From Candidatus Aenigmatarchaeota archaeon (GTDB lineage Archaea > Aenigmatarchaeota > Aenigmatarchaeia > QMZP01), in NCBI GenBank assembly GCA_043824495.1, contig JBDRSV010000025.1:1-39766 (forward strand): a stretch of DNA of 39,766 nt, given 5' to 3'. This document shows positions 31,848-39,582 of this stretch, piece by piece (positions within the stretch are counted from its first letter, which is position 1; every line of letters begins with the position of its first letter). A model generated the notes under the pieces. It was not told the DNA's origin. It ran no database searches and saw nothing but the letters and a program-made list of their open reading frames with translations. The translations under genes and the position numbers were made by a program.

Positions 31848-31975
31848 TTTATATCTAATAATAAATTTGTGAAGATTCTATATATGTGTTAAAACAAGCA
31901 TCAAGAACTCATTTTATTCTTATGGGAATGTTTTGGGCATTAATATATAAAATGAAGCTTACATAATTATAGATA

Positions 31976-32983
31976 ATGTCAACAATAATAGCACATGTCA
32001 CAGGTATTTACCCGTATTCACGTAAACATTCTTTAGCTGCACGTCGTTTTGGAAGAGGAAGTATAAGCAAAGAAGATCTCCTTAAAATCCAAGTAGAAGA
32101 TTCTCGGCTGTTTGTTTCTAAACAAAAAGAACTTGGATTAGATTTTGTTTCTGATGGACAATTCTTATGGATGGATTATGCAAGACCATTCGCTCTCACT
32201 AACAATAGAATAGCAGAAGAAAACCTTGAAATGGTGAGAAGATCTGATACTAACACGTTTATCCGAAGACCAAAAGTTGATGAATTAAACGAATTGAAGA
32301 ATATAGACTTGAAGAATTTCATGCTTCCTATAGAAATAGAGAATAGGAGTCTGAAGGTTTATGGACCTTATACATTCTCTAAATTAGCTGTTTTTAATGG
32401 ATTTTCCACTGAAAAAATTATGGAGATTCATGCAGAAGCATTAGCCAAAACTGTCAATGATCTTAATTTAAGTTATCTAGAAATTGCAGAACCAGCATTA
32501 GTCGAGCACCTTCCTACAAAAGATTTATTAGAACAAACAAAGAGCTGCATTGAAACAATTACTAAAGATTTGAATGGAACAGAAACTAATCTCAGTTTAC
32601 CTTTCAATTCACCCCAACCAATATGGGAAAATATTCTAGACTTTCCAGTCAAAGGTTTGACCGTGGATATGAGATCAAGAGATTACTTCAACATCATACC
32701 ACAAGCCGAAGAAATTGTTTCAAATCATAATTTCATTTTTGACTATGACATACAAAAGAAACTCGTTCTTGGATGTGTAAATGGAAGAAATGGTGGATTA
32801 ACTCCAGGTATGGGATTAGAGACATCAGAATGGATAGTTCAAGTAGTCAATCTTGTAAAAGACAAGACTTCTACTCCTCTAGGAATAACATTTAGTGCAG
32901 ATGAGGTTCTTGTTCCAAGAAAAGTAGCTGATAAGAAATTAGAAAGCATAGCAAAAGCTAAACAGATTTTAGGAGGCGGATAA
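31976..32983 (+). CDS. N-terminal (folate-binding, non-catalytic) half of a split cobalamin-independent methionine synthase
   Basis: HVTGIYP, QKELGLDFVSDGQFLWMD, DTNTFIRRP, GPYTF, LEIAEPAL, LGCVNGRN. Lacks the Zn ligands seen in the next gene. Confidence 0.75.
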   Translation: MSTIIAHVTGIYPYSRKHSLAARRFGRGSISKEDLLKIQVEDSRLFVSKQKELGLDFVSDGQFLWMDYARPFALTNNRIAEENLEMVRRSDTNTFIRRPKVDELNELKNIDLKNFMLPIEIENRSLKVYGPYTFSKLAVFNGFSTEKIMEIHAEALAKTVNDLNLSYLEIAEPALVEHLPTKDLLEQTKSCIETITKDLNGTETNLSLPFNSPQPIWENILDFPVKGLTVDMRSRDYFNIIPQAEEIVSNHNFIFDYDIQKKLVLGCVNGRNGGLTPGMGLETSEWIVQVVNLVKDKTSTPLGITFSADEVLVPRKVADKKLESIAKAKQILGGG

Positions 32984-34117
32984 ATGTCTAATGTGAGATT
33001 ACTGGAACCAATGGAAGTTGGAAGTTTGAGAATACCTGATTGGGTTCAAACTCTTCATGGTAAAGCTAACTTCACTCCTGATAAATTAACCAAGACTTTA
33101 CAAGAAATTGAAGCATGGGAAGAAGGAACTGGAGCAAACGGAGAAGCTACAAGATTAAAAGAACTATTAAACAATCCAGGATCGAATGGCTGGAAACAAG
33201 AAACTTTAATAGAATCTTTAAGATTCCCTGTTATGTTTTTCAAAGCAGCTGGTTTACACGTATTCTCTCCTAGTGGTGAGTGGAGACTAGTACCTGGAGA
33301 CATGTACAAGTATGAAATACACCAAGTAGAAGGAATAGACCTAAGCGGAGAATATACAAGAGCTTTTGATAATAGAATATATGAACCTGGAATAATAACT
33401 GGAAAAATAGGTTTGAAACAAATGTTCCCTAATGATGAGATAAATATAGCAAGAAAATACATGGCTCCTGAAGATAAGATTAAGTTTGCTTTCTCAGGTC
33501 CTTTAACTCAGGTTTTCTGGTCATTAAATGAATATTATAGAGATGTAAGAGAAGCTGTTCTAGATTACGCAGAAAATGTAATCAGACCAAATATAATTGA
33601 TTTGATTAAACGCGGAGTTGAGATTATACAAATAGATGAACCACAAGTCCACCAACTTGGAGCTAAACTATGCGCAGAAGCATTCAATGTTGCAACCAAG
33701 AGTCTAGATGCAGAATTCTATATACACATGTGCTTCGGGGATTATAGAAATGAAATCTTCCCTGATATAATGGAAGCCAAGAACTGTAAATTATTTTCAC
33801 TGGAGTTATCTAATGGTGACAGCTGGAACACAGAGGGTAATAGACCTGGATATGAATTCTTAAAAGACTTTTCTGAGTATAATGATGGTCGTATGATTGG
33901 TGTTGGCTTATTTGATATACACAATCCAAAAATTGAATCAGTTGAATTGCAAAGAGCTAGATTAGAAACCGCCATTAAATTTTTGAAAGATCCTAAATTT
34001 GCTCAACCATGGCCCGATTGTGGAGGAAGACAATTACATCCATTCAATTCATATCTACCAAAACTAAAAAACATGGTTCAAGCAGCTGATCAAGTTAGAT
34101 CACAATTTGAAAATTAA
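32984..34117 (+). CDS. metE: Cobalamin-independent methionine synthase, catalytic (C-terminal) half
   Basis: EVGSLRIPDW, SGPLT, IIQIDEP, Zn ligands HMC, E in LELS and C in PDCG; GLFDIH. Confidence 0.85.
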   Translation: MSNVRLLEPMEVGSLRIPDWVQTLHGKANFTPDKLTKTLQEIEAWEEGTGANGEATRLKELLNNPGSNGWKQETLIESLRFPVMFFKAAGLHVFSPSGEWRLVPGDMYKYEIHQVEGIDLSGEYTRAFDNRIYEPGIITGKIGLKQMFPNDEINIARKYMAPEDKIKFAFSGPLTQVFWSLNEYYRDVREAVLDYAENVIRPNIIDLIKRGVEIIQIDEPQVHQLGAKLCAEAFNVATKSLDAEFYIHMCFGDYRNEIFPDIMEAKNCKLFSLELSNGDSWNTEGNRPGYEFLKDFSEYNDGRMIGVGLFDIHNPKIESVELQRARLETAIKFLKDPKFAQPWPDCGGRQLHPFNSYLPKLKNMVQAADQVRSQFEN

Positions 34118-34119
34118 TT

Positions 34120-35001
34120 ATGGACATGAAGACAGATTCTGAAATCTTGATAAGTTACGAGATTAAGGTACCTGGGATAAGATCTACACAAGAGAAGGTA
34201 GATAATATAATAATACAATTATCAGAAAAGATCAAAGAGAATGATTTCATTCAATTCATAAACATACCAGAAATAATCGAAGAGAACTGGAAAGGGGATT
34301 CTTATTATAGATCAGTCGATGTTGTCAGTCTAGGCGACAAAATACAGAAAGTCACACAAAAAGAAATAATAATTAATAAAATTGTTGGTCACATAGAAAA
34401 AGATATTTTCCAGGATTTTTTGAGAGAGACAAAAGAAAAAGGAATACAAAACATTGTTCTTGTTGGTCCGACAAATGACGCTTTTAGCTATCCTGGACCA
34501 TCAATTCCAGAAGCAAACAATGAAGCAGCTAACTCGGGTATCATAGTAGGAAATATCTGCATACCAGATAGAAACAATGAAGCTGATAGAATGTTCAAGA
34601 AAACAGAGTGTGGGTGCTCTTTTTTCACAACACAAGTTCTTTTTGAAGAAGAGAACATGAATAATGTCCTGAAAGAATATGATAAGTTATGCAAAGAAAA
34701 CAGAATAAAGCCAGCTAGAATATTTCTTTGTTTTGCAACAATCGCTGATGAATATGATATTGACTTTTTCAAATGGCTAGGTGTGGTAATACCAGAAAAA
34801 ACAGAACAAGAACTAAGAGAATCAACTGACATGAACGAATACTCCATCAAAAAACTCAGAGAAACATATGAAAACAATCTGAAGTTCAAGAAGGAAAACA
34901 AGATAGAAGTTCCACTAGGTCTTAACATAGCTCAGGTTTCTATACACAATTTTGATATTTCATTTAAGTTAGCAAGAGAATTGTTTCAAGTTAAGTTATG
35001 A
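34120..35001 (+). CDS. Methylenetetrahydrofolate reductase-like protein, resembling the mycobacterial flavin-independent type
   Basis: ISYEIKVP, FINIPEIIEE, GIQNIVLVG, GNICIPDRNNEADRMFKK, FFTTQVLF, ARIFLCF, FFKWLG. Operon position between metE and folC. Confidence 0.75.
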   Translation: MDMKTDSEILISYEIKVPGIRSTQEKVDNIIIQLSEKIKENDFIQFINIPEIIEENWKGDSYYRSVDVVSLGDKIQKVTQKEIIINKIVGHIEKDIFQDFLRETKEKGIQNIVLVGPTNDAFSYPGPSIPEANNEAANSGIIVGNICIPDRNNEADRMFKKTECGCSFFTTQVLFEEENMNNVLKEYDKLCKENRIKPARIFLCFATIADEYDIDFFKWLGVVIPEKTEQELRESTDMNEYSIKKLRETYENNLKFKKENKIEVPLGLNIAQVSIHNFDISFKLARELFQVKL

Positions 35002-36170
35002 AATATGAAGAAGCTATAGATTATCTCTATCACCTACCCATATTCTTGGGTGATCGTGGTCTAGAGATGATGAAAGAAGGATTAAAGAAATTTGGCAACC
35101 CAGAGAAAGAACTAAAAATAATTCACATAACAGGAACCAATGGGAAAGGTTCTGTTGGGGCAATGATCCAATCTATTCTACAAGACGCTGGATATAAAGT
35201 AGGTTTCTTTACATCACCACATCTTATCACACTAAGAGAAAGAATTAGAATAAACAATAGACTTATTTCAGAACAAGAGTTAGTCGACCTCTTCTTGAAA
35301 GTGAAAGAGAAAATGCCGGAAATGAAATTCTTTGAATTCGTAACTCTAATGTCCATAATCTATTTCAGCGAACAAAAAGTAGATTACGTAATACTAGAAG
35401 TTGGGTGTGGAGGAACAATGGACGCCACTAACATCTCCGACACTCCAGTTATTTCAGTTATAACTAATGTTGGATTAGATCATACTCACATACTCGGTGA
35501 AACAGTTGAGGAGATTGCAAAGGATAAATCAGGAATAATCAAACAAGGAGTGCCTGTAGTAACCGCAGCAAAGAAACCAGAAATTTTAGAAATAATAAAA
35601 AGCATTGCTCAAAAAAAAGATGCTAAACTTATTCAAGCATCTCCAAGTGATTATGAAACAAATCTTCTCGGAGATTTCCAGAGAATAAATACAGGAATAG
35701 CTGTAGCAACTACAAAAGAGATCGGAATAAAAGACGAGAATATAAGAGATGGTTTGAAGCATGTACAATGGCCTGGTCGTTTACAATATTTAGAAAAGGA
35801 TTTCCTTGTGGACGGAGCACATAACGTAGAAGGTTTAGAAGTTCTGAAAAAATACATAGACTCTCTAGACCGCGAAGTTATAATCATTTTCGGATTCTCA
35901 GGTAAAAGAAATGCAAAAGAATTGATGAAACATTTTCCAAAAAACAAACATTTAATTTTCACTCAATCAGAATCAGCATTGGTAGACATGGGACAAAAGA
36001 AAGGCCTAGATCCTGATTCAGTAGATGTAGACTGCAAAAAGATCAAGGATTTCAGAAAAGCAATAGAATATGCAAGATCACTTCAGAAAAACGGAGAATT
36101 AATTCTCGTCACAGGATCCATCTACCTCGTCGGGGATGTGATGAAAGAACTTGGGGCTTCAGTAGAGTAA
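34998..36170 (+). CDS. folC: Folylpolyglutamate synthase / dihydrofolate synthase
   Basis: HITGTNGKGS, FTSPHL, ERIRIN, LEVGCGGTMDATN, ITNVGLDH, WPGRLQ, DGAHN, VTGSIYLVG. Confidence 0.95.
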   Translation: MKYEEAIDYLYHLPIFLGDRGLEMMKEGLKKFGNPEKELKIIHITGTNGKGSVGAMIQSILQDAGYKVGFFTSPHLITLRERIRINNRLISEQELVDLFLKVKEKMPEMKFFEFVTLMSIIYFSEQKVDYVILEVGCGGTMDATNISDTPVISVITNVGLDHTHILGETVEEIAKDKSGIIKQGVPVVTAAKKPEILEIIKSIAQKKDAKLIQASPSDYETNLLGDFQRINTGIAVATTKEIGIKDENIRDGLKHVQWPGRLQYLEKDFLVDGAHNVEGLEVLKKYIDSLDREVIIIFGFSGKRNAKELMKHFPKNKHLIFTQSESALVDMGQKKGLDPDSVDVDCKKIKDFRKAIEYARSLQKNGELILVTGSIYLVGDVMKELGASVE

Positions 36171-37082
36171 TTAAATAAGATTAATTGGTTTGCCTTTTAT
36201 CCAAGTTTCTATGTTATCAATCATTATATCATTTGCGTGTCTGCGTTCTGCGTCTGTGTTCCATGAAATATGTGGTGTTACAAGAATTTTAGGGTGTTCT
36301 AAGAGCGTTTTATATGCTGGTTCATTAACATCACCCACTTCAGCACTAGCTGCATCATCTGCTGCACCAGATAAAATTTCTTTATCAAGAGCCTCTTTAA
36401 GTGCTTCTATGTCATAGACTTGAGATTTTGAAATTGATACAAAGAATGCTCCTTTCTTAAGAGAAAAGAAGAAGTCTCTATTAAGCACTTCCATAGTAGA
36501 TGAATTTACACTTAGACAATTTACAACAGTATCAGCATCTTTTACAGATTCCAATAAATCATCTCCACGTCTAAAGAACCTAACTTTCATACCAAGACTA
36601 TCACATATTTTTCCTAATTGTTTACCAATGAAACCAGCGCCTAAAATAGTAATTTTCTTATCATATAAACTTGTTGCAGCTTTCAAGACCTCATCTCTTG
36701 ATGGGTTTTTTGTTCTAGTCAATTCAAGTAAACGTCTGAAATGAATTAACATCATTGCAACAATCCATTCTGAAACAGGCTCTTTGTTGCAACCTGGTGA
36801 ATTGGAAATAGTTATATTTCTTTCATTGAGCTTTTTTTTATCCAAAAACTCAACACCAACAAAAGGTAATGAGATGAATACATCTTTTAATTCATATACC
36901 TTATCTGACCTCAACCCAAAAATACCTGAACATATTATATCAGCTCCTCTACATCTCTCTAACCACTCATCAGGGGATTTAAGAAGTTCATTATGATAAA
37001 CAACATCACCTAACGATTCCAAGCGCTTTTTTTGATCATTATATAAATTCAGATCTTTTGTTAGTGCTATTTTTGGTTTCAT
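36171..37082 (-). CDS. D-isomer-specific 2-hydroxyacid dehydrogenase family protein
   Basis: ORF 36171..37091; likely ATG at 37082. SNSPGCNKEPVSEW, Rossmann ILGAGFIGKQLG, LVTPHISW. Confidence 0.85.
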   Translation of the reverse strand: MKPKIALTKDLNLYNDQKKRLESLGDVVYHNELLKSPDEWLERCRGADIICSGIFGLRSDKVYELKDVFISLPFVGVEFLDKKKLNERNITISNSPGCNKEPVSEWIVAMMLIHFRRLLELTRTKNPSRDEVLKAATSLYDKKITILGAGFIGKQLGKICDSLGMKVRFFRRGDDLLESVKDADTVVNCLSVNSSTMEVLNRDFFFSLKKGAFFVSISKSQVYDIEALKEALDKEILSGAADDAASAEVGDVNEPAYKTLLEHPKILVTPHISWNTDAERRHANDIMIDNIETWIKGKPINLI

Positions 37083-37087
37083 ATAAC

Positions 37088-38359
37088 TCAATAAAATCTA
37101 AAATGTTTACACAATTCTAGAACTTCTTGTTTGATCTTGTTCTTTAATTCTGAATTGTCACGATCATTGACTACTTTTGCTATCCACTCACCAACTTGTT
37201 TCATTTCAGATTCTTTCATTCCAATTGTTGTGAGAATTGGTGTACCGAGGCGCAGGCCAGATGGTTTGAATGGTGTACTTGGATCATAAGGTATTGCATT
37301 ACAGTTTAACACTATTCCAGCTTCTTCTAGAGCTACTGCAACTGGACGACCTAAACCAACTCCCATTGGAGTGAGATCCATGAGTATTAGATGATTATCT
37401 GTTCCGTTTGAGACTAATTTGAGACCTTGTGACATCAGTTCTTCTGCTAGAGCTTTCGCGTTTTTTACAATCTGATGAGCATAATCTTTGAATTCTGGCT
37501 GTAAAGCTTCTTCAAAAGCAATTGCCTTGCCCGCTATTACATGGTTATGAGGACCCCCTTGAAGCCCCGGAAATACAGATTTATCCATTCTTGATGCAAG
37601 ATTTTTGATTCTCTTTGTTTGCTTTTCGTCTAAACCTTCTGTGTTTGCAAGTCTATCTTCTTTCTTGCACATAATTATTCCACCTCTAGGTCCACGTAGG
37701 GTTTTATGTGTAGTTGTCATGACCACGTCAGTGAATGGAAATGGAGATGGATGTGATCCACCTGCTACTAATCCAGCAATGTGAGATATATCTGCAAAGC
37801 TGTAAGCCCCGACTTCTTCTGATATTTCGTGAAACTCTTTGAATGGGATTGTCCTTGGATAAGCTGTATATCCACTAATGATCATTTTTGGTTTTTCTTC
37901 TAGAGCTATTTTTCTGATTTGATCCATATCTAGAAGACCTGTTTCTTTGTCAACAAAGTAAGGAATTGGAGTGTAATAAGTTCCTGAGAAATTAACATGA
38001 CTTCCATGTGTGAGATGGCCTCCCATGTCTAATCTCATACCCATGAACTTTGCTCCTGGTTTAAGTAGAGTGAAGAAAACTGCTAAGTTGGCTGGGCTTC
38101 CAGAATTAGGTTGAACATTCACATGTTCTGCCCCGAAAAGTTTCTGAGCACGTTCAATTGCAAGCAGTTCTACTTGATCTACAAATTCATTACCTTGATA
38201 ATACCTTTTCAGAGGATATCCTTCAGAATATTTGTTAGCTAGAACAGATCCTGTTGCTTCCAGTACAGCTTTACTTGCATAATTCTCAGACGGTATTAGA
38301 TTAATAGTTGTAGAGAGACGCTCTCTTTCTTTCTCTATATACTCGAAAACTTTGTCCAT
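37088..38359 (-). CDS. glyA: Serine hydroxymethyltransferase (bacterial type)
   Basis: LIPSENY, NKYSEGYP, NVQPNSGS, GGHLTHG, DISHIAGL, TTTHKTLRGPRGG, FPGLQGGP, NGTDNHL, SGLRLGT. Confidence 0.97.
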   Translation of the reverse strand: MDKVFEYIEKERERLSTTINLIPSENYASKAVLEATGSVLANKYSEGYPLKRYYQGNEFVDQVELLAIERAQKLFGAEHVNVQPNSGSPANLAVFFTLLKPGAKFMGMRLDMGGHLTHGSHVNFSGTYYTPIPYFVDKETGLLDMDQIRKIALEEKPKMIISGYTAYPRTIPFKEFHEISEEVGAYSFADISHIAGLVAGGSHPSPFPFTDVVMTTTHKTLRGPRGGIIMCKKEDRLANTEGLDEKQTKRIKNLASRMDKSVFPGLQGGPHNHVIAGKAIAFEEALQPEFKDYAHQIVKNAKALAEELMSQGLKLVSNGTDNHLILMDLTPMGVGLGRPVAVALEEAGIVLNCNAIPYDPSTPFKPSGLRLGTPILTTIGMKESEMKQVGEWIAKVVNDRDNSELKNKIKQEVLELCKHFRFY

Positions 38360-38445: not shown

Positions 38446-39582
38446 TTGGTGATTCTCTTGGATGAAGTTAAGTCCAGATTGTTTTCGGGTACAATATTCA
38501 GTTTCTTTAAGATAACCTTAATGGCATTTGCAATGCTCATACCCACTATATACTTCTCCTCCTTGGAAATATCTATAGTTGTTTATGCTTTCTTACTCTC
38601 TATTGGAGATGTTTTCTCATTTATCATGAAACCTATTGTGGGTGCTTTGACTGACAAGCATGGAGAGAGAAGATACATGATAATTGGTGGAATAATATTC
38701 TTTGTCTCACTTTTCTTAATAGGATTTACAACAGACATTGTTTGGTTGGCTATTCTCAAGATAATTGGTGGGGTTTCAAGCGCTTTGGTTTTTGTTATCA
38801 TAATAATCTACTCACTTAGACTGGTTAAAGATAAACCAGATAGTAAAGTTGGATTCTTCACTGGTCTTGGTAATCTGGGTTGGGTAATTGGTTTGTTTAT
38901 ACCTGGATTATTCGTAGACTCTTTTGGCATTCAGCCAGCATTTTATCTTATCTTTGCTGTCGGTGTGTTATGGATTATTTTTATGTTTAGATTTGCAAAG
39001 AAGAAGGAGACTAAACATTCAGTCAGACCATCATTTTCTTTCTTAAAGAAAATACCACATCTTGTTATATTAAAATCAATGGATCTCGCAATGTTTTCTG
39101 CATTCCTATTCTTCTTCACAAGATACGCACTACAAACTCTAGGATTATCTGGTGCAGTTATTTCATCTGTTGTTGTAGCTGAAGTTATAATATTTGCTCT
39201 TAGCAACATTCTTGTTGGGAAGATATCAAATAAGAATAGGAGAAAATACTGGATACCAGCTGGTATAATATTCCATCTTTTAGCAGCAACTACAATGTTC
39301 TTCGCATTTGATTTGATGCATTACTATCTTGTTGGTGTGTTCATAGGATTAGCTGGAGGATTTGTTGATGTCTGGATATTCTCCAACATAAGTGAAAAAT
39401 TTGAAAGTGAAGAAAAAGGTAAAGTTATTGGAACATTTGGTTGGAGTTATGACTTTGCAACAATACTGGGAGCTCAAGTTCCTTTGATATTCATACTCCT
39501 CAATTTAGGCACATTCACAGCACTGTTCGTCTTCCCAATAGTAATGTTGATCACATTTGCTGTGTTAAAAGCTAAAACATAG
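38446..39582 (+). CDS. MFS transporter
   Basis: About 12 hydrophobic segments; MFS motif A-like GALTDKHGERR and GKISNKNRRK. The start codon (TTG) is uncertain. Confidence 0.85.
   Translation: MVILLDEVKSRLFSGTIFSFFKITLMAFAMLIPTIYFSSLEISIVVYAFLLSIGDVFSFIMKPIVGALTDKHGERRYMIIGGIIFFVSLFLIGFTTDIVWLAILKIIGGVSSALVFVIIIIYSLRLVKDKPDSKVGFFTGLGNLGWVIGLFIPGLFVDSFGIQPAFYLIFAVGVLWIIFMFRFAKKKETKHSVRPSFSFLKKIPHLVILKSMDLAMFSAFLFFFTRYALQTLGLSGAVISSVVVAEVIIFALSNILVGKISNKNRRKYWIPAGIIFHLLAATTMFFAFDLMHYYLVGVFIGLAGGFVDVWIFSNISEKFESEEKGKVIGTFGWSYDFATILGAQVPLIFILLNLGTFTALFVFPIVMLITFAVLKAKT

Follow-up and report, generated by a model that had tools for sequence, protein, structure and literature searches.

A predicted folate-dependent, cobalamin-free methionine module built on split MetE and an Mfr-like reductase in an Aenigmatarchaeote

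We analyzed a 39,766-nt stretch of DNA from a Candidatus Aenigmatarchaeota archaeon (contig JBDRSV010000025.1, here C25 and referred to as the window), which belongs to a 1.01-Mb assembly of 29 contigs that is 80% complete (GCA_043824495.1, here G000). Four genes on its + strand encode the two subunits of a split methionine synthase (MetEN and MetEC), a protein resembling the Mfr type of methylenetetrahydrofolate reductase (MTHFR), and a folylpolyglutamate synthase (FolC), and a serine hydroxymethyltransferase gene (glyA) lies nearby on the opposite strand. These genes probably constitute a folate-dependent, cobalamin-free methyl-cycle module that recycles homocysteine to methionine. The evidence consists of gene identities, conserved catalytic residues, protein folds, conserved gene context, and co-occurrence across genomes. 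A preliminary description of this DNA had proposed a cobalamin-free folate route from GlyA through an MTHFR-type reductase to split MetE, with FolC. Sequence, fold, context, and genome inventory largely support that functional reading, in which the activities are predicted.

Proteins of the window were assigned to domains by Pfam and NCBIfam profile scans. The four open reading frames (ORFs) on the + strand are located at 31976-32983 (MetEN, the non-catalytic N-barrel subunit of split MetE; 335 aa, Meth_synt_1), 32984-34117 (MetEC, the catalytic zinc/homocysteine subunit; 377 aa, Meth_synt_2), 34120-35001 (293 aa, a predicted Mfr-like methylene-tetrahydrofolate reductase, probably flavin-independent and NAD(P)H-dependent, assigned by fold and residues), and 34998-36170 (FolC, folylpolyglutamate synthase type; 390 aa, TIGR01499). 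The MetEN stop codon directly abuts the MetEC start codon in the same frame (GGA TAA/ATG, 0 nt), with AGGAGG placed 9 nt upstream of the MetEC ATG. MetEC and the reductase gene are separated by a 2-nt gap (TAA-tt-ATG), and the reductase gene overlaps folC by 4 nt (ATGA). The coordinates and junctions (0, 2, and -4 nt) agree with the gene order and coupling given in the preliminary description. The distance of ~0.9 kb to glyA (37088-38359, - strand, 423 aa; SHMT) also holds, with 917 nt separating FolC from the convergent gene, but a gene that had been missed occupies this gap. It encodes a 306-aa D-2-hydroxyacid dehydrogenase (36171-37091, - strand), overlaps glyA by 4 nt, and lies 0 nt from the FolC stop codon. 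The GC content of the operon (0.34-0.35) matches that of its flanks and bears no compositional mark of recent import.

MetEN scored 45.8 bits against Meth_synt_1 (cut-off 27) versus 26.0 bits against Meth_synt_2 and lacks the zinc ligands. Its invariant motif R88..N93.F95...P99 aligns with TKWF-TN-Y-P of the MetE N-domain, where Arg88 corresponds to Lys104 of Thermotoga maritima MetE, a pterin-contacting residue (PMC539065). The AlphaFold2 (AF2) model of MetEN (pLDDT 90) matched MetE N-halves best (Z 29.0, 19-20% identity), with MetE C-halves tied (Z 28.4, 15% identity). Because of this near-tie, the fold alone cannot tell which barrel MetEN represents, and its assignment as the N-barrel comes from the Pfam scores and the sequence motif. 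MetEC scored 77.8 bits against Meth_synt_2. Its motifs HMC, SLE, and PDCG align to the zinc ligands H641/C643, E665, and C726 of Escherichia coli MetE, and VGS, SGE, and IDEP align at the homocysteine positions S433, E484, and D599, with Ser, Glu, and Asp kept. In the alignment to the T. maritima and E. coli enzymes, MetEC also keeps the DM motif, the pterin-stacking Trp, and T. maritima Arg493. The nearest relatives of this split MetE lineage were found in Thermoplasmata, candidate phyla radiation (CPR) bacteria, and Actinomycetota (32-38% identity), and the pair scored 145 and 64 bits against NF003317, for which the cut-off is 406. We considered whether the two genes are a broken fused gene, since they share a frame and only TAA followed by ATG (32981-32986) parts them; this was rejected because the corresponding genes of a related Aenigmatarchaeote (locus L002) overlap by 4 nt in different frames.

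Judged by sequence, the pair has the published features of split MetE, namely, the zinc and homocysteine sites, sizes of ≤400 aa, and an adjacent Meth_synt_1 partner. Split MetE and its predicted pterin dependence are already known from Price et al. 2021 (PMC7857596). The archaeal pairs described there (Pyrococcus PF1268/PF1269, Pyrolobus, and Haloferax D4GW95/D4GW90) likewise consist of two adjacent genes, each of ≤400 aa, with a Meth_synt_1 member lacking the zinc site and a Meth_synt_2 member bearing the full zinc/homocysteine site, and for them, as for the window pair, dependence on a methyl-donating pterin is predicted. Unlike them, the window pair is very divergent and shares a single operon with a reductase and FolC. 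The folate-independent core methionine synthases MesA-MesD have a homologous catalytic barrel and zinc site, but they work with corrinoid proteins or MesX and have no N-barrel partner, whereas the window encodes an N-barrel partner, a reductase, and FolC.

The third gene scored 18 bits against MTHFR_2/Mfr (PF19345; cut-off 27), and against FAD-dependent MetF (PF02219; cut-off 24) it scored 18.1 bits in the protein scan and 12.4 bits in a six-frame genome search. Its AF2 model (pLDDT 92.8) matched 7wmz/7wmx, 8bgr, and 3ijd best in Foldseek (TMq 0.75-0.82), with 7wmz, 7wmx, 8qpj, and 8bgr among ranks 1-10 (E 3e-17 to 3e-15); structures of FAD-dependent MetF ranked lower (TMq 0.63-0.71). The closest solved relative is 3ijd (TMq 0.82), and a profile built from 14 homologues gave E values of 4.7e-38 for 3ijd, 2.4e-11 for 7wmw, and 7e-8 for 8bgr. 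Residues E14, L220, Q172, and E54/E55 align to Glu9, Leu221, Gln177, and Glu55 of hMfr, which are the positions A-D defined functionally by mutagenesis (Gehl 2024, PMC11094777), with little or no variation among family members. Furthermore, I148, R151, R157, and K161 align to I150, R153, R159, and K163, the NADH-site residues of MSMEG_6649 (PMC10586308); the family shows no variation at I148, R151, and K161 and at least 90% conservation at R157. The family is of modest extent: a search of 1.84 billion representatives gave 782 clusters at E<1e-3, of which 216 reached E<1e-30.

The protein thus has the fold of Mfr (the flavin-independent enzymes of Mycobacterium smegmatis and M. hassiacum, with MSMEG_6649 and Rv2172c among its members; PDB 7wmw and 8bgr) together with its Glu/Leu/Gln/Glu pterin-site positions and the I-P-x-R...R...K NADH site, and a role in methionine synthesis, as for Mfr, is predicted. 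It differs in having only 16-17% identity to Mfr and a score below the PF19345 cut-off, and its family is a separate one, occurring in DPANN archaea, Thermoplasmata, CPR bacteria, and Acidobacteriota and not in mycobacteria. Cthe_2304 of Clostridium thermocellum (3ijd) was crystallized with two 5-methyl-tetrahydrofolate molecules; in contrast to the window protein, it was deposited as an uncharacterized protein and has no known link to a methionine synthase. No published account of 3ijd/Cthe_2304 was found in our literature search, which covered a limited collection. We place the third gene in a sister family of Mfr that is nearer to 3ijd and for which an Mfr-type working is predicted. Fold and conserved residues agree with a separate earlier remark that the reductase resembles the flavin-independent type.

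We compared gene context across 44 genome loci encoding reductase relatives. The related Aenigmatarchaeote L002 has the identical four-gene order. In Micrarchaeota, the archaeal S-adenosylmethionine (SAM) synthetase (MAT) is followed by MetEN, MetEC, and the reductase. A metagenome-assembled genome of the CPR bacterium Shapirobacterium has the order reductase-MetEN-MetEC-MetK, and a SAM-I riboswitch (RF00162, 45.1 bits) was detected in front of this operon (L024:6811-6914). In a Woesearchaeote, full-length MetH is followed by the reductase with a 4-nt overlap. Because the reductase family is linked to two unrelated methionine synthases, to both SAM synthetase types, and to a SAM riboswitch, we regard this context as strong evidence that the family would supply methyl-tetrahydrofolate (methyl-THF). 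The Thermoplasmata and Acidobacteriota copies had no methionine-metabolism neighbour among the loci compared.

The three-gene core of MetEN, MetEC, and the reductase is a ready-made module common to Micrarchaeota, other Aenigmatarchaeota, and CPR bacteria. This recurrence, together with that of the FolC-GlyA adjacency in the phylum, weighs against the earlier proposal that the cassette was assembled in an archaeon from bacterial-type parts. The arrangement had also been thought undescribed. This is not so for split MetE itself (PMC7857596), but the addition of FolC to the operon was limited, among the loci compared, to the window lineage and its relative L002.

The distribution was surveyed in 201 genomes of the phylum. 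The reductase was detected in only four, and the MetE pair in the same four, with a single core-type MetE in one further genome; FolC and SHMT were more widespread (38 and 108 of the 201, respectively). In the window's own family (f1), the reductase, the MetE pair, and FolC occur together in G000, G034, G111, and G175; searches of the remaining 20 genomes detected none of them. G034, G111, and G175 keep the MetEN-MetEC-reductase order, with FolC located elsewhere. A tree of the reductase places the window and L002 with Woesearchaeota, Micrarchaeota, and Thermoplasmata. The copies of G034, G111, and G175 belong to the second main clade (96/94 support), which also contains Shapirobacterium, a haloarchaeon, and Acidobacteriota. 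The MetEC tree likewise parts the window lineage from the G034/G111/G175 group; both trees are unrooted and have long branches. A single archaeal family therefore holds two lineages of the module, likely through separate acquisitions.

Next, we examined the region upstream of the operon. A candidate operator, ATTCTTATGGGAAT (31916-31929, no strand assigned), has the form ATTCY-N4-RGAAT and is centered ~53 nt upstream of the MetEN ATG. By sequence reading only, a TATA-like AT-rich box 24-37 nt upstream of this ATG (31939-31952, + strand) is a putative promoter. The same palindrome is located 40-65 nt upstream of the first module gene in L002, L003, L004, L005 (before MetH), L007, and L050, and its strict form also precedes metK in L058. 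A looser form, ATTC-N6-GAAT, occurs upstream of the L051 module and of metK in L057. Within the module loci, every strict match falls in such a promoter. The window contains two matches against 0.61 expected, and the whole genome contains 20 strict matches against 8.2 expected, most of them inside ORFs; no further regulon members were recognized in this genome-wide search. A protein with an XRE-type helix-turn-helix (HTH_3) and a CBS pair is encoded in the genome at C18:657-1193, with the same palindrome at its own gene start (C18:1198), and an XRE-HTH/CBS-pair gene is divergently adjacent in L002, L003, L007, and L057. Operator and regulator independently tie the operon to methionine/SAM control, with the ligand of the regulator and its binding to the palindrome inferred. 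A published archaeal HTH-CBS methionine regulator was not found in the same limited literature collection. Separately, two copies of GAAACAATTCTAnAAGGAATT in G000 (C7:7959 and C7:9327, 1.37 kb apart) flank two small - strand ORFs; they fit the operator pattern but resemble a repeat of another kind.

FolC scored 356 bits against TIGR01499 (cut-off 162.65), both Mur_ligase_M and Mur_ligase_C were detected, and its best solved relatives were T. maritima 1o5z and the Lactobacillus casei folylpolyglutamate synthase 1fgs. Its activity may be limited to folylpolyglutamate synthesis or may extend to that of a dihydrofolate synthase. GlyA is a serine hydroxymethyltransferase of the canonical folate type (SHMT, 516 bits; NF000586, 576 bits), with bacterial folate-dependent enzymes as its best solved relatives (~435 bits). 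In two of the relatives, FolC lies within open frames of 590 aa (G034:C16:1916-3073) and 609 aa (G111:C22:10297-11454), ~200 aa over the usual length, which may reflect a fusion or an N-terminal extension. Across the phylum, full-length SHMT (PF00464) matches fall in two score classes, ~500-570 bits versus ~175-235 bits, and by our reading of the tables 34 of the 38 FolC-bearing Aenigmatarchaeota genomes carry the high-scoring canonical enzyme.

We then searched the genome for further enzymes of folate, methionine, and SAM metabolism. S-adenosylhomocysteine (SAH) hydrolase is present, as is ThyX, with two tandem Thy1 domains in one 575-aa frame (G000:C8:23528-24796). Dihydrofolate reductase (DHFR), FolD, FolP and other pterin-binding enzymes, formyltransferases, Cys_Met_Meta_PP enzymes, and genes for homocysteine synthesis were not found in this 80%-complete assembly. 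The checks for SAH hydrolase and DHFR suggested in the preliminary description thus gave a present and a not-found result, respectively. DHFR was also not found in three relatives (G034, G111, and G175), one of which is 95% complete; the absence of DHFR is explicable because ThyX would regenerate THF. Folate use in the genome is apparently limited to GlyA, ThyX, the reductase, and MetE. All three relatives have a bacterial-type MetK. In G034, it is encoded in an 833-aa open frame (L059, G034:C7:113912-117241) in which ~1.3 kb, resembling an inserted intein, lie between the segments that match model positions 1-32 and 31-138.

Several observations weigh against a folate-dependent module. The position of T. 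maritima Arg496 is Glu in MetEC, the alignment is ambiguous around Glu583, and MetEN carries a 3-residue deletion in its N-terminal RxxK motif (T. maritima Arg15/Lys18), where the alignment is again ambiguous; MetEC of the window lineage also sits on a long branch. With 18 bits, the reductase stays under the cut-off of either Pfam MTHFR family, and the enzyme activity of its family is a prediction. Neither SAM synthetase type (archaeal MAT or bacterial MetK) nor a folate transporter (BT1) was identified in the assembly. The cassette had earlier been called self-contained, which is unproven because no SAM synthetase was found. A MetK tblastn match on C15 (E 0.55, 25 aa) was antisense inside another ORF and was taken as chance.

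Three other explanations were weighed. The methyl donor of the split MetE could be another methyl-pterin or a corrinoid protein, with the neighbouring genes serving a different pterin. Price et al. leave "other methyl pterins" open for archaeal split MetE (PMC7857596), and some contacts to the folate tail are not conserved, as described above. The genome also encodes a 508-aa ThyA-like protein (L053, G000:C15:58544-60070) with a weak MtrA-like N-terminus, a partial ThyA core, and a C-terminal pterin-binding PterinBD-DUF4346 region, which could use a pterin other than folate, and two B12-binding-domain proteins are encoded elsewhere. We nevertheless consider this explanation improbable: the operon includes a bona fide FolC, and within family f1 only module-bearing genomes were found to have FolC; GlyA is of the folate type; 3ijd, the solved structure nearest to the reductase, binds 5-methyl-THF; the same reductase follows a full-length MetH that contains a folate pterin-binding domain; and no corrinoid genes are near the operon.

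It is also unlikely that the third gene encodes a subunit that binds and delivers methyl-THF, or a folate store, for the methionine synthase in place of a reductase. Such a role would suit the uncharacterized 3ijd, which holds two 5-methyl-THF molecules and has no reported activity, and the scores of the third gene under the MTHFR cut-offs. However, the NADH-site Arg/Arg/Lys, the catalytic Glu (position A), and the Gln (position C) hardly vary, if at all, among family members. In addition, the six-frame search detected the third gene as the sole MTHFR-like gene in the genome, so that without it methyl-THF would have no source unless imported. Import is the starting point of the remaining explanation, that the main role is folate salvage, in which imported 5-methyl-THF is converted via MetE only to the THF that ThyX and GlyA require and FolC traps the vitamin. 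The lack of detected folate synthesis genes and DHFR, the restriction of FolC in the operon to the window lineage and L002, and the few apparent uses of folate are in line with it. Salvage needs no reductase, yet the reductase is the tightest-linked partner of the synthase in every lineage; salvage as the main role therefore has little probability, and salvage and methionine roles are compatible.

In the preferred reading, a methyl cycle that recycles homocysteine, GlyA would transfer a one-carbon unit from serine to THF, and the Mfr-like TIM-barrel enzyme would pass a hydride from NAD(P)H directly to methylene-THF, with no flavin in between, to form methyl-THF. A MetEN-MetEC heterodimer would pass the methyl group to homocysteine, with MetEN closing the folate cleft and MetEC bearing the zinc/homocysteine site. 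FolC would polyglutamylate salvaged folate for retention and for acceptance by MetE. Homocysteine would come from SAH via SAH hydrolase and not from de novo synthesis. As ThyX would make thymidylate, THF would never be oxidized to dihydrofolate and DHFR would be unneeded; the salvaged pool may cycle only between THF, methylene-THF, and methyl-THF, feeding ThyX and the methionine cycle. The HTH-CBS regulator, binding ATTCY-N4-RGAAT, is the candidate controller of the operon. The enzyme activities, the absence of flavin, the formation of the MetEN-MetEC complex, and the regulator ligand enter this scheme as predictions. Compared with the classical bacterial pathway of GlyA, FAD-dependent MetF, MetE, and FolC, the chemistry and the set of steps would be alike. 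The differences are that two separate proteins make up MetE, an Mfr-type reductase takes the place of FAD-MetF, and the genes are clustered under an archaeal HTH-CBS regulator in a host without detected DHFR, FolD, or folate synthesis.

What is new here is that split MetE and MetH in DPANN archaea and CPR bacteria likely have the 3ijd-like family as their reductase partner, along with a mobile three-gene core, the addition of FolC in the window lineage, and a minimal DHFR-free folate network. On a broader view, for which we see the chances as evenly balanced, the 3ijd/Mfr-like family would provide the hitherto unassigned flavin-free methylene-THF reductase for DPANN archaea as well as for many Thermoplasmata, some CPR bacteria, and Acidobacteriota. 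Together with split MetE it would form a three-gene cassette that small-genome archaea and bacteria have exchanged and that is wired to the SAM sensors of its hosts, HTH-CBS in archaea and the SAM riboswitch in CPR bacteria. These findings suggest a concrete, testable function for an uncharacterized family of enzymes, among them the orphan structure 3ijd, and would extend the flavin-independent MTHFR type from mycobacteria to archaea and CPR bacteria. It also adds genomic evidence that split MetE, hitherto a prediction, uses methyl-folate in these lineages. A symbiont-type archaeon of ~1 Mb could run a minimal folate economy with FolC, GlyA, ThyX, the reductase, and MetE only, which implies that a host supplies folate and serine or homocysteine precursors.

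The dehydrogenase between folC and glyA scored 86 bits against 2-Hacid_dh_C, and its PDB matches were phosphoglycerate dehydrogenases (~1e-17 to 1e-18) and a glycerate/glyoxylate reductase (1e-15). Phosphoglycerate and hydroxypyruvate/glyoxylate are its candidate substrates, and it would be cotranscribed downstream of glyA. In seven other genomes of the phylum, no dehydrogenase gene adjoining glyA was found; FolC adjoins glyA in three other genomes. On the far side of glyA, a major facilitator superfamily transporter without the signature of BT1, the folate-biopterin transporter family, is encoded at 38446-39582 (+ strand), divergent from glyA across 86 nt.

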